From Candidatus Micrarchaeota archaeon (lineage in GTDB: Archaea; Micrarchaeota; Micrarchaeia; Anstonellales; Anstonellaceae): 18,255 nucleotides of DNA. The notes under the pieces were generated by a model. It was not told the DNA's origin, made no database searches, and saw nothing but the letters and a program-made list of their open reading frames with translations. A program made the translations under genes and the position numbers. Of this stretch, positions 1 through 18,131 are shown in pieces. The stretch is from assembly GCA_013331805.1 (NCBI GenBank), contig DUFS01000036.1, positions 4,813-23,067 of the forward strand, in the 5' to 3' direction. How positions within the stretch are numbered: the first letter of the stretch is position 1; the number at the start of each line of letters is the position of its first letter.

Positions 1-1372
1 AAACCCTTTTTGCGAATTCACGGAGGAATTCGTCCAGCTTTTCGTTGGGTATGGTCGCCCCTGCCGCGATGTTGTGCCCTCCCCCGACTCCGCCAAGCCC
101 TGCGCAGACTTCAGAAAGGATTTTCCCAAGGTTCAGCCCCTCTGCCACCAATTTTTTTGTACCCCTTGTAGAAAGCTTGATGTTCCGAGCGGAACTCGCC
201 CGGCCCGTTCCACTTCTGGAAAAATCAGGCGATGATTTTTCCATGCCGGATTCCTCAAGCGACAGCGCCAGCACCGGTTTGTTCCTCGCGCCCGGGAAAA
301 GCATCCCTGCCACAACGCCAATAATCGAATCCGCAATGACCCCCCTGCCGTCAATCAGGATGAACTTGCCCAAATCCTGCGAGTTTTTCACTGCAAACTC
401 AATTCCAGCCCTGAGGTTCTTTCTATGTTCTGCAAGAAGTGCGCGGGCCGATTCATAGGCGCCAAGGCGCGAAAGGCATACATCCACCCCGAGTTCTGCC
501 CTGTCATTCCTGCCGCAGGCATTCAAGAGTGTGGAAAACTCAGATGCATCGCGAAGCTCGGTGCCCTCTTGTCGATTAAGGAGAGTAAAGACCTCGCCAG
601 TGAGCTTGCCAGCAGCCTCATGTGAAATCTTCAAAGACAGCAGATCAGCGAGTGCAGAAACCAGCTTCTTCTTTTCGTCCAGAGGCAAGTCCCCATAGGT
701 GCTCCACTTCTCCCCTTTCTTAAGCTCGATTCCAAGCTCGGACAGGAATTTGCAGCACTCGTCCTCATGCCCGGTAAGGCCTGGCAAATAAGGCCCGTCA
801 GCATAAAGCAAAAGCTGCGTCAAGGGCCGGCTGTTCCTTCCGAAAAGCAACAAGTCAACGGCCACTTCGACTTCCTTCTGCCCCACGGCAATGTCCAGCA
901 TTTTCTTATTCAGGCTGCGGAGGGGGTACTGTATGTCCCCAACCGCGCCCACCACGCCCAAGTCGGCCGACTCCCTGAAAACAAAAAATGCGCATCCGGC
1001 AGCTGAAAGCTCGCTCCCCCCGTCAAAGCCGAACAGATGAGGATTTGCCTGCAAATGCCCCTTTGCCAAGGGCTGGTGGTGGTCGATTATCAGGACGTTG
1101 TTCTTCATCTCATCCACAAACGCAGAGCCGCTTCCCAAATCCACAAAAATTACGGATTTTTCGCCCTTTATGGACTTAATGAACTCCTGGTCAAGCTTCC
1201 GGACGTTTTTTATCCGGTATTCCTTGCCATTTTTCTCAAACCACGAAGCCACGATCGAGCCGGAGGTTATTCCGTCGCAGTCATAGTGGTGGACAACCAG
1301 CGGCGTTTCCATTGCCAGGGCCGATTCCTTGGCCTCTTCACACCTCTGCAGGAAAGCTTTTGCGTCCCCCAT
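1..1372 (-). CDS. recJ: DHH-family phosphoesterase, archaeal RecJ/GAN (Cdc45-like) ssDNA exonuclease with C-terminal DHHA1 domain; 3' end runs off the window
   Basis: Translated by hand; absent from the ORF track because there is no stop in the window. ATG at 1372 gives MGDAKAFLQRCEEAK...VVHHYDCDGITSG (motif I)...IFVDLGSG (II)...LIIDHHQP (DHH)...VVGAVGDIQ (IV)...LLLFGRNSRPL...EFSTLLNACGR...IIGVVAGM...GGGHNIAAGATIP (DHHA1). The frame is open to base 2. Confidence 0.93.
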   Translation of the reverse strand, partial: MGDAKAFLQRCEEAKESALAMETPLVVHHYDCDGITSGSIVASWFEKNGKEYRIKNVRKLDQEFIKSIKGEKSVIFVDLGSGSAFVDEMKNNVLIIDHHQPLAKGHLQANPHLFGFDGGSELSAAGCAFFVFRESADLGVVGAVGDIQYPLRSLNKKMLDIAVGQKEVEVAVDLLLFGRNSRPLTQLLLYADGPYLPGLTGHEDECCKFLSELGIELKKGEKWSTYGDLPLDEKKKLVSALADLLSLKISHEAAGKLTGEVFTLLNRQEGTELRDASEFSTLLNACGRNDRAELGVDVCLSRLGAYESARALLAEHRKNLRAGIEFAVKNSQDLGKFILIDGRGVIADSIIGVVAGMLFPGARNKPVLALSLEESGMEKSSPDFSRSGTGRASSARNIKLSTRGTKKLVAEGLNLGKILSEVCAGLGGVGGGHNIAAGATIPNEKLDEFLREFAKRV

Positions 1373-1401
1373 AAATACACACCCTCTTTTGGCAAAATAC
1401 A

Positions 1402-1410
1402 TGTATAAAA
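1402..1410. promoter_or_regulatory. Putative shared TATA box of the divergent recJ / metallopeptidase pair
   Basis: TGTATAAAA (TTTTATACA on minus), about 24 nt before ATG 1434 and about 30 nt before ATG 1372 on the minus strand. Confidence 0.6.
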
Positions 1411-1433
1411 GGCAGCCTGCGCCAAACACAACC

Positions 1434-1862
1434 ATGGACGTTGAGATGGCCCCCGATGTTGAGAAAATGGTGTCCGACATCGTGGACACGCTTTCGTACG
1501 GGCACATAAACGAGTTTCGGATAATCTGCATGCGCTCGCGGAACGCCACTGCAAGCGCCTACGCCCGCATATGGAACCTGCCTGACATCTGGCAAAAGGC
1601 GCTTGGCGTGGGCACATTTTACATCATCGAAGTTCTTACGCAGCACTATGATCCCCTGCAGCAGGAAAAAAAGGAAAAGGTGCTGATACACGAGCTATTG
1701 CACATACCGAAAACCTTTTCCGGCGCGCTCCGCCCACACGGTGGCAAGGTGAAGATAAACGAGCAGATGGTGGGCAAGCTGCACAAGCTATATAAGGAGC
1801 GCAAGAAGCAGATTCAGGCTGCGTCCTCCAATCGCCTTGAAAGGGCAGAGGAGATGTTCTGA
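1434..1862 (+). CDS. Putative Zn-metallopeptidase (archaeal COG4900-like family)
   Basis: HEXXH motif in KVLIHELLHIPKTFSGALRPH, plus RSRNATASAYARIWNLPDIWQKAL and YIIEV, typical of this archaeal family. Start placed at ATG 1434 (MDVEMAPDV), just downstream of the TATA box. Confidence 0.8.
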   Translation: MDVEMAPDVEKMVSDIVDTLSYGHINEFRIICMRSRNATASAYARIWNLPDIWQKALGVGTFYIIEVLTQHYDPLQQEKKEKVLIHELLHIPKTFSGALRPHGGKVKINEQMVGKLHKLYKERKKQIQAASSNRLERAEEMF

Positions 1863-7929: not shown

Positions 7930-8232
7930 CTAATTTTTCTTTCCTTTCTTCTGCATCTTCTTCACCCAGCCAGGCAGCTTGGAGGGGGTTTTTGAAAAAT
8001 CTACGAAGCTGACCTCGGTTCCTCGCTGTTCTGCGTGAACAAGCGGGGTGCCGTCATCCTTGGAAAGTGTGTATGAAGTTGAATCAGGCTTTATTGCAAG
8101 CGTCATCTTCTGCTTTTTTCCAACAATGTCAAACTCAAAGCTGAAGTTCTGTCCGTCCTTAGAAACACGGACCTCCTTTATCTTGTCCCACGGAATATCG
8201 GTTGAGAGCGGAAATCTTGTTGGTGCGTTCAT
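7930..8232 (-). CDS. Hypothetical protein (100 aa, beta-rich, PH-like motif IPWDKIKEVRV)
   Basis: Clean ORF convergent with drg, natural amino-acid composition, weak SD-like AGGT upstream. No confident family. Confidence 0.65.
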   Translation of the reverse strand: MNAPTRFPLSTDIPWDKIKEVRVSKDGQNFSFEFDIVGKKQKMTLAIKPDSTSYTLSKDDGTPLVHAEQRGTEVSFVDFSKTPSKLPGWVKKMQKKGKKN

Positions 8233-8240
8233 AAAAATAC

Positions 8241-8393
8241 CTATCGTTTGTATCCATTACTTTGGTTATATTTCATTCCGGGCCCATCAAAATCCTCTGC
8301 GGCTTTCTTGATTGCGTTTATTAGAGCTTGCAGCTCTCCTTTTCTTTGCACTTCTTTGGAAGGAGCAAATCCAGACTCTTGAAATATGAACAT
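8241..8393 (-). CDS. Small hypothetical protein (50 aa), not in the ORF track
   Basis: MFIFQESGFAPSKEVQRKGELQALINAIKKAAEDFDGPGMKYNQSNGYKR*. SD-like GAGGTG overlaps the upstream gene's TGA a few nt before the ATG, and the ORF fills the gap between two co-oriented genes almost exactly. Confidence 0.55.
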   Translation of the reverse strand: MFIFQESGFAPSKEVQRKGELQALINAIKKAAEDFDGPGMKYNQSNGYKR

Positions 8394-8402
8394 ACAGCCA
8401 CC

Positions 8403-8819
8403 TCATGCGAGCTTTTGGTAGTCTATCTCCCCTTTCCTGTACACCAGCATCTCAAGTATGACGTCTTCCTTCCCTTTTTTTATGGATCTGGCAAGCGTCT
8501 CTGACTTATTATCGACTAACAAAGTTATCTCGTAGACTTTTCCATATAGTGTTTTTACTTTTAAAGAATAGGCGTCAACACCTTCTCCACTTGCCAAACT
8601 CACTTCCTGAATGTTTTCAACACTCAGGTTTTTTATTATGGGAACAAATTTGCTTTCCTTTTTTTCTTTTAGGAATTGTTTTATCTGCTTTTGGCTTATG
8701 AAGCCGTTCAACACGATTTTCGCTTCCAGCACAGTTTTCTCACTTAGATTTCGTACGTCAATTATTGGCTTTTCCCTTTCCCAGACTGACTCTTCCCTTG
8801 CTTTGTATGTCTCTGCCAT
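8403..8819 (-). CDS. Hypothetical protein (138 aa, AT-rich gene)
   Basis: Lys/Glu-rich ORF in a visibly AT-richer segment, divergent from the AlkD-like gene across a TATA-containing 52-bp gap. Confidence 0.7.
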   Translation of the reverse strand: MAETYKAREESVWEREKPIIDVRNLSEKTVLEAKIVLNGFISQKQIKQFLKEKKESKFVPIIKNLSVENIQEVSLASGEGVDAYSLKVKTLYGKVYEITLLVDNKSETLARSIKKGKEDVILEMLVYRKGEIDYQKLA

Positions 8820-8871: not shown

Positions 8872-9549
8872 ATGAAGGCATCGCAGCTGGTGACCCATCT
8901 TAGGCACAAGGGCAACCCAAGGAACCTCGAGGGCATGGCCAAGTTCGGCATCAACACCAAGAAGGCTGTCGGCGTCCAGATTCCGCACCTTCGGCAGCTT
9001 GCGAAAAACATAGGCACGCACCACAACCTTGCTTCCGACCTCTGGAACACCCAGATGCACGAAGCCAGGCTCCTGGCAGGCTTCATTGACGACCCGCTCA
9101 AGGTGACTGAGCGGCAGATGGAGGACTGGGTAGAGGATTTCGACTCCTGGGACATCTGCGACCAGGTGTGCAGCAACCTTTTTGACAAGACGGACATGGC
9201 GCACAGGAAGGCAGTCGAATGGTCGCACAGGAAGGAGGAATACGTCAAGCGCGCAGGCTACGTGCTCATGGCGTGCCTTGCGGTGCATGACAAAAGGGCG
9301 AACGCAGCCGCCTTTGAAAAATTCTTCCCGCACATAATCCGCGGCGCAACCGACGAACGCAATTACGTGAAAAAGGCTGTGAACTGGGCATTGAGGCAGA
9401 TTGGGAAGCGGAGCATGAGGCTGAACAAGGAGGCAATCGAAATAGCAAAAAAAATAGGGGCGATGAACTCTTCTTCTGCAAAATGGATCGCTGCTGATGC
9501 ACTTCGCGAGCTTGAATCCGAAAAGGTGCAGAATAGGATAAAGCAGTAG
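8872..9549 (+). CDS. DNA alkylation repair protein (AlkD-like HEAT-repeat DNA glycosylase)
   Basis: GVQIPHLRQLAK, LW...HEARLLA, WVEDFDSWDICD, EYVKRAG and DERNYVKKAVNWALRQIGKR are DNA_alkylation family signatures. Start ATG 8872. Confidence 0.9.
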   Translation: MKASQLVTHLRHKGNPRNLEGMAKFGINTKKAVGVQIPHLRQLAKNIGTHHNLASDLWNTQMHEARLLAGFIDDPLKVTERQMEDWVEDFDSWDICDQVCSNLFDKTDMAHRKAVEWSHRKEEYVKRAGYVLMACLAVHDKRANAAAFEKFFPHIIRGATDERNYVKKAVNWALRQIGKRSMRLNKEAIEIAKKIGAMNSSSAKWIAADALRELESEKVQNRIKQ

Positions 9550-9561
9550 GGAAAGCAGCAG

Positions 9562-10296
9562 CTACAGCTTCACGACCTTCTTCCCGTTGATTTCGTAAAC
9601 ATTCCCCTTTTCGTCGATTTTCATGCTGGCAATTATTTCAAAGGGCTTCCCGACGGACTCAATCCATTTTCCAGATACGCTGAGGTTTGAATAACCTTTC
9701 TCTTCCTTTACTGCACTGATGCTGACCACGTTTGGAAAAAGAAGCTTGCCCACCTGAGCTAACACAGTTGGAAATTTTCGTGTGTAAGATTTTTTTCCAG
9801 CAGCGTCGCTGTTGATGAAGTCATAGGCTTCTTCGACCCGATATTCGTATTTGCCCCCACCCAGCGTTCGCCTTGCCAGCATCGTATAGCCAATCGTGTC
9901 CCAAACGTCGCTGTTTGCCATTCTGCCATCAATGTACCCCTGCCTCTCCCATCCGTCTTTCCCAAGGGACCATTTTCGTTCGATTTCAACTTGCTTTTTT
10001 TGCTCCTTTGAGAAATAGCTTAGCTTTCCCTTTGTCCCTGCCAGCAGCTGCTTCCATTCCATTTCGGAAAAATCAATCTTCAGGGGCATGCCAGAAGAAT
10101 TCAAGTAATGCGCCAGGCATTTTACTGCATTGGCATACCCGCCAGTCATATCTTTCAGCTTGTCATTCGGCATTCTGTTAATCCAATTTTCCCCATAAAG
10201 CATGATAGCTTGAATTGCCTTCTTTGCCGACTTTTCCACAAGCTTTATCGTCACAACTCCGATTGGGGGCGCCATCATCTGGAAAAGCAATGCCAT
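9562..10296 (-). CDS. Hypothetical protein with colicin M-like (lipid II phosphoesterase-type) motif series
   Basis: LAHYLNSSG(61-69), TIGYTML(134-140), KYEYRVEEAYDFIN(149-162) and GKPFEI(216-221) occur in the same order as the colicin M catalytic-domain blocks. The ORF is very likely real; the family assignment is by eye only. Confidence 0.6.
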   Translation of the reverse strand: MALLFQMMAPPIGVVTIKLVEKSAKKAIQAIMLYGENWINRMPNDKLKDMTGGYANAVKCLAHYLNSSGMPLKIDFSEMEWKQLLAGTKGKLSYFSKEQKKQVEIERKWSLGKDGWERQGYIDGRMANSDVWDTIGYTMLARRTLGGGKYEYRVEEAYDFINSDAAGKKSYTRKFPTVLAQVGKLLFPNVVSISAVKEEKGYSNLSVSGKWIESVGKPFEIIASMKIDEKGNVYEINGKKVVKL

Positions 10297-10336
10297 AAGC
10301 TAATCTTGGGCATAAAAAAGATAAAAACAGCCATGT

Positions 10337-12376
10337 TCAGATTGCGCCCAGCTGCTTTCCCGCGATCGCTGCCGCGACCAGCAGGGAAACGATGTTGAGC
10401 ACCTTTATCATCGGGTTGAGCGCAGGGCCCGAAGTGTCCTTGAAAGGGTCGCCCACTGTGTCGCCGACAACCGCGGCCTTGTGCGCGTCGCTTCCCTTTC
10501 CGCCAAAGTGCCCGGACTCTATGTATTTCTTGGCATTGTCCCAGGCTCCTCCTGCGTTTGCCTGGAAGACTGCCATGAGCTGCGAGGCCATAATGGCTCC
10601 TGCCAAAAAGCCCCCCAGCGATTCCAAGCCGAGCAGGTAGCCTATCAGAATGGGCACGAGTATCACTATCGCGCCCGGTATGGCAAGCGAATTGATCGCA
10701 GCCTTGGTGGATATGTCTACGCAAGCGGCATAGTCCGGCCGCTTGGTGCCCTTCATTATCCTCGGGTCCTTGAACTGCCTGCGCACCTCCTCCACAACAA
10801 GATTAGCCGCCCTTCCGACAGCCTTCATGGTTAGCGAGGAGAAGATGAATGGAACCGCCCCGCCTATCAAAAGCCCGATGAACACGAGCGGCGCAGCCAC
10901 GTTTATGGACTCCAGGCCGCTTGACTCGAAATACGTGGAGAACAGTGCGACAGCCGCAACAGCTGCCGAGCTGATGGCAAATCCCTTGGTCACTGCCTTG
11001 GTGGTGTTGCCAACAGCATCCAGCTTGTCCATCCTCTTCCTTCCAGCCGAGGCAAGGCCGGACATCTCGCCAATCCCGTTCGCATTGTCAGAGATCGGGC
11101 CAAAGGTGTCCATTGCCATTATCATCGCGGTAGTGGAAAGCATCCCCAATCCCACAAGAGCAATGCCGAAGTAGCCAAGCCCAAAGCCGAAGTAGCCGAC
11201 CAGGATTGCAGCCGCAACTATCAGCACTCCGGCAACAGCAGACTCCATGCCCACCGCAAGCCCGGCAATCAGGTTGGTGCCTGCTCCGGACTTAGCCGCA
11301 GCCGCAATTTCGCGGACAGGCTTTTGCTTGGTGGAAGTGTAATAGTCGGTGATCTGCATTATTATCTGCGTAACCACCAGCCCGGCAACAAGCGCCCCGA
11401 AAGCGCCCCAACTGTCCAGCACAAAGATGGAAATTGCTGCGAAAAATAACGCAGCCACAATCGTAGAAGTTGTAAAGCCCCTTCTCATCGCGTCAAACGG
11501 GTACTCGCTTTCCCGCTTGACCTTCACGCCAGCGCTTGCCCAAAGGCCGATCAGCATGGCGCCTCCTGCAACCAGAAGCGGAAAGAGCGCGCCAGTAAGC
11601 CCGTACATCGCAGCGCCAAGCAGCATGGTCGCAATAATCGTCACAGTGTAAGACTCGAAAACGTCCGCGCCCATTCCTGCGCAGTCGCCCACGTTGTCGC
11701 CCACATTGTCTGCTATGGTTGCCGGATTGCGGGGGTCGTCCTCGGGAATTCCCTTTTCCACCTTGCCCACCAGGTCAGCGCCCACGTCCGCGGCCTTGGT
11801 GAATATGCCTCCGCCCACCCTCATGAAAAGCGCAAGAACGTTGGCGCCGAATGCAAAGCCAATGAGCGCGCGCCCTGCCTCGCCAAGCGCAGCATTTTCT
11901 TCGCCAAACAGCATGTATGCCCCTGCGAACACAGCGGCAACGCCAAGCAGGCCCAGCCCTGACACAAGTGCGCCGTTCACAGCGCCTGCCTGAAATGGCA
12001 CAGCAAGCGCCTCCTGCATGCTCGAAAGTGATGCTTTGGCTGCCCGCGCATTGGAACGAACAGCAATGTACATGCCAAAATAGCCTGCAAGCCCTGAGCA
12101 GGCTGCGCCCACCAGGAATGCAATTGCAACTGACTCGCCAAGCACAAAGTAGATTGGCATGAGCAGAATTATTGCAAAAATGCCGACTGTCATGAACTGC
12201 CGCTTGAGGTAGGCGTCCGAGCCTTCGCGGATGGCAAGCGAAATTTCCTTCATCTTTTCGCTGCCCTCGTCCCGCCTGAAAATGGACATGGCAAGCCTTG
12301 CCCCGTAGGCAATCCCGATTATCGCAAGGATTATCGGCACGTACAGGGCCACTGTTGGCACGTCAACTGCTACCAA
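10337..12376 (-). CDS. hppA: Membrane-bound ion-translocating pyrophosphatase, predicted K+-independent (H+-pumping) type
   Basis: GGIFTKAADVGADLVGKVEKGIPEDDPRNPATIADNVGDNVGD, DTFGPISDNANGI, DAVGNTTKA (Lys at the K+-dependence site), GGAWDNAKK, GDTVGDPFKDTSGP; many TM helices. TTG start with SD GAGGTGA at 12381-12387. Confidence 0.96.
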   Translation of the reverse strand: MVAVDVPTVALYVPIILAIIGIAYGARLAMSIFRRDEGSEKMKEISLAIREGSDAYLKRQFMTVGIFAIILLMPIYFVLGESVAIAFLVGAACSGLAGYFGMYIAVRSNARAAKASLSSMQEALAVPFQAGAVNGALVSGLGLLGVAAVFAGAYMLFGEENAALGEAGRALIGFAFGANVLALFMRVGGGIFTKAADVGADLVGKVEKGIPEDDPRNPATIADNVGDNVGDCAGMGADVFESYTVTIIATMLLGAAMYGLTGALFPLLVAGGAMLIGLWASAGVKVKRESEYPFDAMRRGFTTSTIVAALFFAAISIFVLDSWGAFGALVAGLVVTQIIMQITDYYTSTKQKPVREIAAAAKSGAGTNLIAGLAVGMESAVAGVLIVAAAILVGYFGFGLGYFGIALVGLGMLSTTAMIMAMDTFGPISDNANGIGEMSGLASAGRKRMDKLDAVGNTTKAVTKGFAISSAAVAAVALFSTYFESSGLESINVAAPLVFIGLLIGGAVPFIFSSLTMKAVGRAANLVVEEVRRQFKDPRIMKGTKRPDYAACVDISTKAAINSLAIPGAIVILVPILIGYLLGLESLGGFLAGAIMASQLMAVFQANAGGAWDNAKKYIESGHFGGKGSDAHKAAVVGDTVGDPFKDTSGPALNPMIKVLNIVSLLVAAAIAGKQLGAI

Positions 12377-14048: not shown

Positions 14049-17000
14049 ATGAGGTGTTTCGGGAGGCACCTTTCAACACTGCTCCTTTTCTGTTCGATAG
14101 CTTTCTCTGCAACTTTCGATGAGTGTTTCCCCAGAAACGAGCTTTACAGCTTCTGGAATTCCCCCCTGTACGTTTCCCAAAACACCCACATACTGAATTT
14201 GGGCATAGCTTCGTTTTACTTTTTTGAATTCGATGCTGCGTCAGAAGGGCTGAACCTGACTGGGGTCGCCATGACATCGGGCTCGGAATTCCTCTCAGCC
14301 CTGCCGCCAGGCGAGCGCAAGGATTTCTCAGACATAGCATCCTCCCTAAACTCAGCTGCCAACTCATCCTCGTCAGCCAGGGAAAGCTACCAAAAGGCGC
14401 ACCTGCTTTCAAAAAACGCGCAAGGCGCACTTTCCACCCTGCTTTCACCCTACGAACTATCGCTTTTGATGGCGCCTGCCTCGGGCCAGCCTGCATCGTT
14501 TGCCACAATTCTCCTTCCGCTCTGGCACGCCTACGATCTGGCGCTTTATGGGTCCAATTACCCCTCTTACCTATGGCAGGCGCACCAGAGTGCAGCAAGC
14601 GCATTTGACTCAGCCAATTTCGCGCAAAACGAGCTTGCGAAAAGATGTGACGAAAGGCACCTATTCCTGAAGCGCGCGGGCGCTGGCGCAGCCGAATACA
14701 ACGGAAAAGCAAGGCAGGCATATTCCCGCGCGCAGTCTGCGCTCCTTTCATCATCTTCCAGGTGCAGCGCAAAAGGCGCACAGGAGATATCAGACTACTT
14801 TGCTTCAAGCCCGCAAGTTCCGAACGTGGCCGAGGCAGGGCTTGCCGAATACCTTGATAATGCATTAGGCAATGGCAGGAACACCAGCATCATTTTCCTG
14901 GCTGAAACATACTCAGGACTTTCACAGGCAGCGCTCCAGATGCAGCAGGAATTCGACCAAGACCTTTTTTCAGCCAAAGGGTCCGCAGAGAAGCTTTCAG
15001 GTGAGCTTTCGCTTCTTGAAAAAGAGAAGCTTGAGCTGATTGGGGAGCAGCCTGCGCAGTCAGGTGGGCAATACGCACTCATAGGTTCGGGCTTTTCCGG
15101 AATTCTCTCTGGATTCCGCAAGGCAAAAGAGGAGCTTGCCGCTTCAAAGCAGCTCATTTACGAATCAGAATCCCTGTCAAAATCCGAGCGAGTGGAAGGC
15201 TATCTGGCGAGCGCAATTTCAAAGGCAGAGCAATCGGGCAAGAGGTCCGAGTCCGCGCTCCTTTCGCTCCCTGAAATAAGGGCAAATGCGAATGACGCCG
15301 TTGCCATGCAGCGCGAGCTTTCGCAGGCTGCCATGGAAAAGGCAAGGCAAAAACTCACCCAAAGCCCGGGCTCGTTTTCCGATGCGCAGTCATTGGAGGA
15401 AGCAAGATCGCTCTTTGATTCCGCCGAAGAGGCATTCTCTTCTGCCGAAGCGCAGGGCAGCCTTGGGGAGCGCTTTATGCGCTATACCGACGCCTTGAAG
15501 CTCGCCGTAACCTCTTCCTCGCGCGCAGACTCGCGTTTTTTCCTGCCGCTGAAGAGCGGTGCCGAGCAGTCGCTTTACTCCCTCGAATCCCTGCTTCAAT
15601 CTGCACAAAAGGACGGCCTTGAGGTGCATTACGAGCAAAGCAGGCTGCAAAGCTACAGGCAGCTTCTGCGTTCCTCTTCATCATCTGAGACATTCCAGGT
15701 TATTTCTGATGCGACTGCCCAGGACTACAAAAGCGTGCTTCTGCGATTGTCGCAGTCCTACTCGCCTCTCAATGAGAAGTATGCGGAAACCGCCTACAAT
15801 TTGGAAGAAATCAGGAAAAGCGAGCCTGCCTTCCTGCCAGCATTCGATCCGCTTTCTCAGTATTTCCCAGGAGGCATTCTAAGTCCTGAGCTTGCGGCAG
15901 GCAAGCTCTCCACGATAAAAAAAGACCTGGATTCCCTTTATGCGCAGTCGCAGGTAAGGCTGCCTGCCCATCTCTCGGCCCTGCTTTCCGAGAGCACAGT
16001 CGTCCAGGAAATCTCAGACCCTCCAATGCTGGGCCAGCCATCCAGGTATTCTGCGGCCATAACAGCAAAAAATCCGACCGGACTTGCCTACAGTGGCAGC
16101 CTGCTTATCAAGGCCTTGACAAGCCTACCGCTTTACAGCCCTGATTTCATTTCTGGAGATCGCGTATTGGATGCATATTTCAAGGATGGAAAGACCAACA
16201 TAGCCATTGCAGGGGTGGAGCCTTATCAGGGATTTTCCTTTTCAGCATCCAAAACAGAATCGCCGGTATCAGTGGCTTCTTCAAACGACGAGTGCGAAAT
16301 TGCTTTCTCGCAGGGTGCCTTAGTTAAAAGAAAAATTGCATTTTTCGCAACCCGCAACCTTGAAAGCCTGGGGGTTTCCGAGTTAGTGCCAGAAGGCACG
16401 CAGAATGGAATTGCTTCATATTCAGGAAGGCAATACGCGCTTTATCCCTCATTTTCAGATGGGAGCAATGCCCTTGTTGGGGAAATAAGCAAAGTAACGG
16501 AAGGCAAAAATACGGTTGAAATCCTCTATGAGGTGGGAAAACCCTTTGAAGTTGCGGCGTCAAGCCAAATTTTGGAAAATATGGGGGGCGGCACCACCAA
16601 GGTTTCCTACGAGGTCATTCTCAGCAACCCCGGACTCGATTGCGATTCGGCTGCCATCGCAATTGACGAGCCCTATTCAGCGGTTTCTCATTTTTCCGCA
16701 ACTTCGCTTGACCAGGGGAAAGTGACTGGGGCAGCATCCGTTCCCACGAGTTTTGGCACCAGGCTGAGCTTCCTCGTTTCACCGCTTCGCAAGGGGAAAT
16801 CCATCCAAGCTTCAGTATCGTACACAATTCTGGACGTATCGGCAGCGGTTTCTTCGGCGCTTGCGCTTGCCGAAGCGCAGGTTGTGGAGTTCAAAAGGCA
16901 GCGGGACATTTATTCCCTTGCGCAAGCCAAGTCGCTCCTGGCTGAAAACAGGACAACCGAGGCACTAGCCCTGCTTTCGCAAATGAGAAGCGAAGCAGAA

Positions 17001-18131
17001 GGGCTCGTTCTTTCCTCTGCAGACTACCGGCAGTTCCTTGAAGAAAACCAGTCGGCATCCGCGCTTCTGTCAGATTCGCTCCAGGCTACCACAAGCCTTC
17101 TGGAGCAAAACCTTACTGAACAATCCGCAAGGCTCTCGCTGTCTATCTCCGCGCTTCAGGACGCTCTCCAGTCAGCCTCGCTTCTTTTCCAAGACGGCAA
17201 GTATGGTGATGCAGTCAAACAGGCAAGGAAAGCGGCCTCGAATTTCCGCTCCTCTCTTTCCGAGCTTGCCTGGGATTCCTCATCAGAAGTCTCCAGCCAC
17301 TATGCAAAAGCAAGGAAGGAGGCAGCGCCAAAAGATGCCCATTTGTCTGCGGCAGAAAGCCTGATTGCTTCTGCTAACTCGCTTTACTCCCAGGGCAAGC
17401 ACCTGCAATCCTACTTGTTGTCCTCCAGGGCATCGGGCGAGATTGCAGCCAGCTCGCAGCTTTCATTGTCCGGCGAAGAAGAAGCCAACCAGGCGCTCAA
17501 AATAATAACCGAGGATTTCGAGTCTCTCCGCGCCAAGGGTGAGAAATCGCTTTCGCAGTATTCGCAGCAGTTCTCTGCACTTTCCGGGCAGAGCAAGAAA
17601 CGCCTGCCCATCACCCCCTCATCCGCACAGCAGAAAATCGACGATGCTGCTAAGGGCCTGGCGACAGCTTCAAAATCCACCCTTCCGAATGAAGAGTCGC
17701 TTGCCCAGGCAACCCGCTCCTACGCAAAACTTGCCGAAGCCGTATCTGCGATAGAGGATTCGCTCGGCTCCATTCGGCTTTCGGCAGCATCCTCGCTTGA
17801 GGTTGCAAAAGTGGCGCTATCCGAGGTCAACGCAAAAGCCTCTCCAGAGGAAAAGGGGCAAGCTTCCCAAATCGAGTCCGAGGTAAAAAGTGCCGAAGCC
17901 TATTATTCGGGTTCGCTTTATGCAGACTCTCTCATGGCATCAGAGCGTGCGATAAGCGCCTCAAATGCCCTGCTTTCGAGAAAAGAAGGCGGGATAGACG
18001 CCGGCACAGCAGCGCTGGGCGCCCTGTCCCTCCTATTCATTGCCGCGGCTGCCTATTACTTTGCAAAAAGGAAAAAGCCTGAAGAAAAAAAGAAAGGGAA
18101 AAAATCGATTCCCAAAGGCGAGGAGATCTAG
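14049..18131 (+). CDS. Large (1360 aa) exported, C-terminally membrane-anchored surface protein of unknown function
   Basis: N-terminal signal-peptide-like MRCFGRHLSTLLLFCSIAFS-A; long Ala/Ser/Leu/Glu helical regions; central beta-rich region; C-terminal TM AALGALSLLFIAAAAYYFA followed by a Lys-rich tail. Confidence 0.85.
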   Translation: MRCFGRHLSTLLLFCSIAFSATFDECFPRNELYSFWNSPLYVSQNTHILNLGIASFYFFEFDAASEGLNLTGVAMTSGSEFLSALPPGERKDFSDIASSLNSAANSSSSARESYQKAHLLSKNAQGALSTLLSPYELSLLMAPASGQPASFATILLPLWHAYDLALYGSNYPSYLWQAHQSAASAFDSANFAQNELAKRCDERHLFLKRAGAGAAEYNGKARQAYSRAQSALLSSSSRCSAKGAQEISDYFASSPQVPNVAEAGLAEYLDNALGNGRNTSIIFLAETYSGLSQAALQMQQEFDQDLFSAKGSAEKLSGELSLLEKEKLELIGEQPAQSGGQYALIGSGFSGILSGFRKAKEELAASKQLIYESESLSKSERVEGYLASAISKAEQSGKRSESALLSLPEIRANANDAVAMQRELSQAAMEKARQKLTQSPGSFSDAQSLEEARSLFDSAEEAFSSAEAQGSLGERFMRYTDALKLAVTSSSRADSRFFLPLKSGAEQSLYSLESLLQSAQKDGLEVHYEQSRLQSYRQLLRSSSSSETFQVISDATAQDYKSVLLRLSQSYSPLNEKYAETAYNLEEIRKSEPAFLPAFDPLSQYFPGGILSPELAAGKLSTIKKDLDSLYAQSQVRLPAHLSALLSESTVVQEISDPPMLGQPSRYSAAITAKNPTGLAYSGSLLIKALTSLPLYSPDFISGDRVLDAYFKDGKTNIAIAGVEPYQGFSFSASKTESPVSVASSNDECEIAFSQGALVKRKIAFFATRNLESLGVSELVPEGTQNGIASYSGRQYALYPSFSDGSNALVGEISKVTEGKNTVEILYEVGKPFEVAASSQILENMGGGTTKVSYEVILSNPGLDCDSAAIAIDEPYSAVSHFSATSLDQGKVTGAASVPTSFGTRLSFLVSPLRKGKSIQASVSYTILDVSAAVSSALALAEAQVVEFKRQRDIYSLAQAKSLLAENRTTEALALLSQMRSEAEGLVLSSADYRQFLEENQSASALLSDSLQATTSLLEQNLTEQSARLSLSISALQDALQSASLLFQDGKYGDAVKQARKAASNFRSSLSELAWDSSSEVSSHYAKARKEAAPKDAHLSAAESLIASANSLYSQGKHLQSYLLSSRASGEIAASSQLSLSGEEEANQALKIITEDFESLRAKGEKSLSQYSQQFSALSGQSKKRLPITPSSAQQKIDDAAKGLATASKSTLPNEESLAQATRSYAKLAEAVSAIEDSLGSIRLSAASSLEVAKVALSEVNAKASPEEKGQASQIESEVKSAEAYYSGSLYADSLMASERAISASNALLSRKEGGIDAGTAALGALSLLFIAAAAYYFAKRKKPEEKKKGKKSIPKGEEI

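Follow-up and report, generated by a model that had tools for sequence, protein, structure and literature searches.

The catalytic signature of the colicin M (ColM) family is described as DxYDx5HR (PMC5821083, PMC8469651); the D226E substitution is reported to leave ColM almost inactive, and Y228, H235 and R236 are each reported as essential (PMC8469651). PF14859 reference structures are available for PaeM (4G75/4G76), syringacin M (4FZL) and pectocins M1 and M2 (8JC1, 4N58). A divergent ColM-fold toxin, DUF3289 (PF11692), has been tested and is reported to act in the periplasm of E. coli (PMC11148199, PMC12135965). Weapons against the bacterial wall are also described from archaea, where they are patchily distributed, as peptidoglycan hydrolases and as three colicin M homologues reportedly detected with BAGEL4 (PMC12352652; bioRxiv 10.64898/2026.07.27.741052). 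Two further comparisons concern architecture. The Lipocone preprint (10.1101/2025.01.14.632903) describes cystatin-like/broken-hairpin systems in which a novel ColM-fold tip stands behind an N-terminal trafficking element, and WHIX/RIX markers are described as a single N-terminal element that precedes many C-terminal bodies unrelated to one another.

The window analysed here, a stretch of 18,255 nucleotides, holds a gene whose product resembles each of these systems in part. The source organism, Candidatus Micrarchaeota, is a tiny groundwater archaeon. A first-pass annotation, made from the sequence, had described an orphan gene with a colicin M-like series of catalytic motifs in a probable DPANN symbiont. 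We confirmed the 244-residue open reading frame and its ATG start, and the DPANN assignment is confirmed for relatives that carry homologues, which are titled Ca. Micrarchaeia or Micrarchaeota. The features of the locus are as follows.

9562..10296, minus strand: the gene, encoding a 244-residue protein with a predicted colicin M-like fold (open reading frame and model)
10279..10296, minus strand: MALLFQ start, a variant of MFxFQ and a candidate export or sorting tag
10090..10113, minus strand: AHYLNSSG block (residues 62-69), which pairs with ColM residues 134-141 and supplies most of the sequence signal
9868..9909, minus strand: D130-R143 block, which falls on the ColM LGNITL strand in the anchored alignment
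9817..9849, minus strand: Y150-F160, putative active-site block, with E156 at the D226 position and D159 at the D229 position
9778..9780, minus strand: R173, candidate stand-in for ColM R236, invariant in 25 of 25 members
9652..9804, minus strand: inserted beta-alpha-beta-beta-alpha subdomain, about residues 165-215 (secondary structure of the model)
9634..9651, minus strand: GKPFEI terminal strand, aligned with the ColM GK-x-Y-x-I strand (G216 in 21 of 25)
10337..12376, minus strand: H+-pyrophosphatase gene hppA, bounding a variable slot on the left
8872..9549, plus strand: gene for AlkD-type DNA alkylation repair, bounding the slot on the right
10312..10327, minus strand: T-rich run that separates the hppA stop from the ATG; probably the terminator of hppA, and possibly a TATA box as well
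8241..8393, minus strand: 50-residue open reading frame with an MFIFQ start, preceded by an SD-like GAGGTGG; the second gene of the window to carry the tag

The gene has a GC content of 0.46, against 0.53 for the genome. A "TTTTTAT box" had been noted upstream of it, and the T-rich run is indeed present. It lies directly 3' of the hppA stop, and because a comparable run also follows hppA in relatives that lack the gene, it is at least in part the oligo-T terminator of hppA. The earlier statements that the protein lacks a Sec signal and the gene an adjacent immunity gene were borne out. The sequence has no hydrophobic signal peptide, the feature that marks Sec/Tat-secreted archaeal peptidoglycan hydrolases, and nothing immunity-like flanks six archaeal loci of the family, where the neighbours are hppA and alkD; NMD3 and a CxxCxxCC gene; an AAA ATPase and an acetyltransferase-like gene (the latter identified by eye); a GHMP kinase, with a contig end on the other side; rhodanese and rpS2; and an Ig-domain protein. 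No linked immunity gene was found at these six loci, and an unlinked one may exist.

Comparison of folds places the protein near colicin M. With the AlphaFold model of the query (pLDDT 86.8), Foldseek searched 350,542 chains and ranked syringacin M first, and pectocin M2, PaeM and ColM were all among the top 13, with weak scores (best E 7e-3; TM 0.21-0.25, or 0.21-0.26 over two models). VIA, which compared 48,161 representatives and in which Z below 6 may reflect a mere common arrangement, had pectocin M1 as its top match (Z 5.5, rmsd 4.6, 135 residues aligned) and also matched PaeM (Z 4.8, 140 residues), syringacin M (4.7, 147) and ColM (3.7, 144). ColM-type chains were the only ones aligned over more than 100 residues among the matches listed, where two fatty-acid-synthase fragments of 50 residues equal the top match in Z. 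The model of a phage member, P0024 (pLDDT 68.7), again gave weak Foldseek scores, and its VIA ranks 1-3 were pectocin M1, syringacin M and PaeM. Over the two models, the top-ranked ColM-type VIA matches extend across 135-156 residues at Z 4.7-5.5 and rmsd 4.6-6.0.

Profile comparison agrees with these rankings. Our ColM comparison set comprised colicin M and its homologues (52 matches of a ColM-seeded search), of which 50 domains were aligned; hhalign matched the family to these with a probability of 93% and a pairwise E of 3e-7, with the four motifs in register. The score was 49, against 11.5 for the reversed profile, and none of 100 column shuffles exceeded 18.5. This match rests on the HY..G block, since its removal drops the probability to 0.5%, within the shuffle range. 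Against PDB sequences the best match of the family profile was PaeM, at E 0.26. In the Atlas, a language-model search, the first neighbours were mostly unnamed phage clusters (0.90-0.93), and the named ones include Colicin_M (11-47% of cluster members), DUF3289 and DUF6402. DUF3289 was the nearest named cluster to the query (0.85), and one section of a Bacillota SH3/peptidase M14/PG-binding protein was matched with a TM of 0.53.

Direct sequence comparison yielded little. The single protein had no useful match in Pfam, PHROGs or the PDB, Rab GTPase matches being noise (E>0.05); a word-indexed protein search returned the query alone, and a BFVD fold search nothing at E<=0.001. PF14859 was unmatched by the query at E<=1, by 23 search matches at E<=0.1 and by the source genome, and gave nothing above its cut-off across 201 Micrarchaeota genomes; three weak matches were rejected, as they fall in what was identified by eye as the DNA polymerase D small subunit. 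PF11692 was matched in none of the four carrier genomes, nor by the query or the search matches, and the family is absent from the 52 matches of the ColM-seeded search. A new toxin domain with no colicin M kinship, for example a nuclease or another hydrolase in which HY-x-x-G-x-G and the beta arrangement arose by convergence, would account for this silence, for the unmatched PF14859 and PF11692 profiles in the carrier genomes searched, for TM values below 0.3 and for a sequence signal that comes from one block. We consider it quite unlikely, given that the models of two divergent members both rank ColM-type chains first over 135-156 residues and that the language-model search yields three ColM-like families. 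The colicin M-like fold of the first-pass annotation has weak support from the structural rankings, the profile match and the language-model neighbours, all fold scores being weak, and remote homology to colicin M, though weak, is likely.

The four motif blocks are present in the order and with the numbering claimed for them: H63-Y64...G69, D130...G136-x-T138, Y150-x-Y152...E156-x-Y158-D159-F160 and G216-K-P-F-x-I221. The HY-x-x-G-x-G helix motif and the LG-x-[IT]-T strand of the ColM family are both recognisable, and acidic-x-aromatic-D-F and GK-x-aromatic-x-I follow in identical order. In an alignment of 25 members, E156, R173, G69, W109, G115, W116 and G136 are invariant, and T138 (23/25) and R142 (24/25) are nearly so. 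Judged by this conservation, the four motifs are beyond chance. The first-pass reading had been staked on conservation of the HY and YDF residues, and the outcome goes half against it: H63 is kept in 19 members, Y64 in 22 and D159 in 23. The Tyr of YDF is lost, as its column holds Phe in 20 members, Trp in four and Tyr in one. Glu at the D226 position, noted earlier for the query, extends to all 25. The downstream His-Arg pair had been called not evident; the His is indeed absent, and an invariant Arg, R173, had been overlooked.

By comparison, the 50 ColM domains have D226 in 49, Y228 in 41 (Phe in eight), D229 in 48, H235 in 39 and R236 in 49. Where they carry DxYDx5HR, the present family has E-x-[FWY]-D-[FL] with no His, and its Arg lies 14-40 residues C-terminal of the Glu rather than 10 residues after the first acid as in ColM. 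An inserted subdomain of about 50 residues, longer than the corresponding ColM stretch, precedes the last motif, and residues 159-216 gave separate VIA matches of 45-50 residues. The family also differs from ColM proteins in having no TonB/receptor domain and no immunity gene and in leaving PF14859 unmatched. Because D226E nearly inactivates ColM and the family has Glu, mostly Phe and no His, it falls outside the ColM family by signature. By profile as well as signature, the protein is not a member of the ColM family proper. Nor does it belong to DUF3289, a ColM-fold toxin likewise divergent in sequence that comes with a cognate immunity gene and T6SS delivery; the query family, found in archaea and phages, shows neither the PF11692 profile nor a T6SS/DUF943 context.

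These substitutions bear on whether the domain is an enzyme. It may be a ColM fold without hydrolase activity, or with other chemistry, that binds or sequesters a lipid carrier or serves as an envelope adhesin. The inactivity of ColM D226E would fit, as would the degenerate ColM domain of PmnH, which appears inactive (PMC8469651), and a catalytically dead pectocin M1 that is reportedly still able to lyse cells (PMC5821083); moreover, in P0009, P0010 and P0013 the domain is the tip of a large membrane-anchored protein. Against this stand a Glu and an Arg that remain invariant at 21-37% identity, as is typical of catalytic residues, and burkhocin M1, which has a degenerate DxFKx5R and is listed among characterised bacteriocins, its lipid II hydrolysis being unassayed (PMC5821083). 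We regard a non-hydrolase, or another chemistry, as unlikely. Invariance of E156 and R173 at such low identity points instead to a working catalytic site, probably rebuilt around the inserted subdomain.

The gene is an orphan in its local setting and has relatives elsewhere. A phmmer search of 1.84 billion representatives gave 24 matches: the query itself, 21 relatives, and P0008 and P0019, which are MucBP-repeat artefacts and were dropped. A profile search brought five further members, three of which entered the 25-member domain alignment. Members lack annotation and occur in Micrarchaeia, in Woesearchaeota, as archaeal Rhs toxin tips and in marine phages. The three archaeal colicin M homologues already reported were found by HMMER with the known ColM sequence at E<1e-6; the present family is missing from our ColM-seeded matches and leaves PF14859 unmatched, but the two sets may overlap.

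Four architectures can be distinguished. The first comprises soluble proteins, most with an M(x)xxFQ start, three of which are loci in genomes of the same genus. In the second, large membrane-anchored carriers (P0009-P0011, P0013) carry the domain at their C-terminal end or close to it; P0010 comes from a genome of Woesearchaeota, for which predatory traits have been proposed (PMC9723730). The third consists of a signal peptide, an Rhs core and the domain as C-terminal tip (P0014, P0015, P0017, P0020), so that, in these proteins and in the large carriers, the domain occupies the place of a polymorphic toxin tip. The RHS Pfam match of P0020 is weak, and its gene adjoins that of ribosomal protein S2. 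The fourth is made up of stand-alone phage proteins inside terminase/portal modules, and at two phage loci (L111, L115) the member gene adjoins peptidoglycan-binding genes (weak Pfam matches). No viral locus was found for P0021. In marine phages L111, L115-L119, L122 and L123 the stand-alone gene sits between terminase genes, and in L120 a short hydrophobic neighbour is holin-like by eye. Phage members are possibly lysis or exclusion proteins that target lipid II.

In the archaea, the gene was present in four of 23 genomes of the genus and four of 176 of the order, each time at another site. Over 401 sampled genomes of the phylum, the family profile matched in the source genome alone, the three other known carriers lying outside that sample. 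Among 21 other genomes with hppA, the hppA-alkD slot is closed in seven, where the two genes are directly adjacent, and holds an unrelated gene in three; in the remainder, hppA has other neighbours or stands at a contig end. In the closest relative, one of these three, the slot is filled in the same orientation by an unrelated gene of about 260 residues (L146:745-1566, GC 0.45). The colicin M-like gene is a lone passenger in this variable slot, and its occurrence has the pattern of an arms race. Contamination was rejected, since the genes on either side are archaeal and their order is retained in relatives. In a tree of the 25 domains, six tagged members group together (89/90); because the deep branches are without resolution, we claim no donor or direction of transfer. 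Large genes for FtsK/HerA/VirB4-like ATPases lie within 0.7 and 3.5 kb from homologues in two genomes, G017 and G006, which may be chance (L104:170-2794, identified by Pfam; L009:12001-15231, by eye).

The N-terminus of the protein led to a second finding. Five homologues begin with M(LM)F[LI]FQ; the MALLFQ of the query is a variant that the strict pattern misses, and homologues P0002 and P0012 are untagged. The source genome (G000) holds six more tagged genes, for unrelated products of 256, more than 265, 96, 254 and 1114 residues and the 50-residue product in the window. At the DNA level, the M-F-hydrophobic-F-Q pattern occurs 153 times in 42 genomes of the taxonomic family, against 28 in a reversed control; MFxFQ is found in 39 of the 42, and its frequency in most of the other sampled orders is close to background. 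We read out 91 of the 153 matches, and 75 open into at least 100 codons. Tagged proteins of at least 50 residues (n=82) fall into 61 BLAST clusters, so that there are at least 61 overall, and 61 of the 82 have an SD-like word upstream, compared with 16% of random ATGs in the source genome. MFxFQ is real as a protein-start motif, and a role in export is inferred for it.

A simple hydropathy scan (not SignalP) detected a hydrophobic signal core within the first 45 residues in none of 75 tagged proteins. When 67 tagged proteins were scanned against Pfam, many of them over about 830 residues only, 11 had a match: Amidase_2, SLT, NlpC/P60 (below cut-off) and GDSL lipase are among these, as are three Por_Secre_tail, two TPR, FHA and GNAT domains. 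With 56 of the 67 lacking a Pfam family, most of the tagged cargo is of unassigned purpose. SLT domains occur in 19 of the 42 genomes. Of 22 SLT matches, three are tagged; these are among the five strongest, and two have the form MLIFQ. The single Amidase_2 of the genus is untagged, so that wall hydrolases are not all marked by the tag.

Like the WHIX/RIX markers as described, MFxFQ is one N-terminal element before many unrelated bodies; it differs in being five residues followed by a polar linker, and archaeal. A contractile-sheath gene (PF04984) was found in none of the four carrier genomes, and no route of delivery to the periplasm was identified. The Lipocone broken-hairpin forms are also described as free of signal peptides and immunity genes. 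Those systems are bacterial and their trafficking part is a folded domain, in contrast to the five-residue tag here; their toxin domain may belong to the present family. In the freely accessible literature that was searched, we found no description of an MFxFQ tag or of the Glu-type family.

Several further loci deserve separate mention. A tagged family of about 330-360 residues (L019, L031, L035, L039, L040, L050, L062, L070, L080, L102; G000:C1 near 2756) lies directly upstream of a multi-pass, transporter-like gene (by eye) in two genera, and is a candidate structural part of a system that reads the tag. The 1114-residue MFLFQ protein of the source genome (G000:C69:29892-33236; L175) has an Ig-like stretch with a weak Filamin match and is followed by a gene with a signal peptide. 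A conserved family of about 750 residues, lipoprotein-like by eye and with a weak SLT match, recurs in many genomes of the genus (L157, L162, L164-L169). Within the window, a three-gene block adjoins the DRG GTPase gene (7930-8819, minus strand: a low-GC 138-residue frame, the 50-residue MFIFQ frame and a 100-residue frame). The 100-residue frame is kept beside drg in relatives, and in five of them (L058, L066, L073, L078, L094) a divergent MFVFQ gene of 50-57 residues precedes it. Elsewhere in the window lie a frame with a phage-type metallopeptidase domain amid housekeeping genes (1329-1862, plus strand; PF18894, E 1e-20) and a 1360-residue protein (14049-18131, plus strand) that has a signal peptide, extended helical stretches and a membrane anchor at its C-terminus and matched no Pfam family.

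The most likely reading of these observations, to which we give about an even chance, is an exported antibacterial effector of predicted ColM fold that would cleave lipid II-type polyprenyl-pyrophosphate carriers. The protein would leave the cell by a route that reads the N-terminal (M)xxFQ tag and would reach the outer face of a bacterial membrane. By analogy with ColM biochemistry, E156 and D159 may bind a divalent metal at the pyrophosphate while R173 may hold the leaving group, and the polyprenol-pyrophospho-glycan bond would be hydrolysed as in ColM. Cleavage of lipid II would halt wall synthesis and so kill or weaken the bacteria. The producer would need no immunity gene, since it makes no lipid II, and the gene would move as a solo unit into variable slots.

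That the target is bacterial is suggested by context, which leans this way through phage members beside peptidoglycan-binding genes, Rhs fusions and tagged peptidoglycan hydrolases; the lack of an immunity gene at the six archaeal loci fits as well. Alternatively, the same fold and chemistry could act on an archaeal substrate, the Dol-P or Dol-PP glycans of a host or competitor, where cleavage would deprive the S-layer of its glycosylation or release polyprenol for use by a symbiont. A cultured Micrarchaeota is reported to live on an archaeal host, joined to it by protein tubes (PMC11329633), and a shift in specificity could come from the altered active site, with its Glu and Phe and lack of His, and from the inserted subdomain. 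A producer with lipid-linked glycans of its own should, however, need protection, and no immunity-like gene is seen at the six archaeal loci; in addition, the marine phage members, which adjoin peptidoglycan-binding genes, have the identical E/D/R set. An archaeal substrate seems to us rather improbable.

The finding touches several questions. Divergent ColM-fold toxins are known from bacteria, and a Glu-type family in DPANN archaea and phages is new. With it, the colicin M superfamily would gain archaeal and marine phage members, and the different Glu/Phe/Arg site bears on the unsolved mechanism of ColM. The breadth of unrelated cargo under MFxFQ is likewise new, and the motif is possibly a new archaeal export tag; it offers a handle for listing candidate exported proteins across an archaeal family and for seeking the machine that reads the tag. 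Most DPANN hosts and lifestyles are unknown, and a lipid II-type toxin fold in Micrarchaeia and Woesearchaeota, without an immunity gene, is a concrete, testable sign of archaea attacking bacteria. It is conceivable, though we hold this more doubtfully than the effector itself, that a family of Micrarchaeia uses a novel MFxFQ-reading export to deliver a rotating arsenal of amidases, lytic transglycosylases and the Glu-type ColM-like hydrolase onto bacteria. If this is true, these DPANN archaea would prey on or parasitise bacteria, and not archaea alone.
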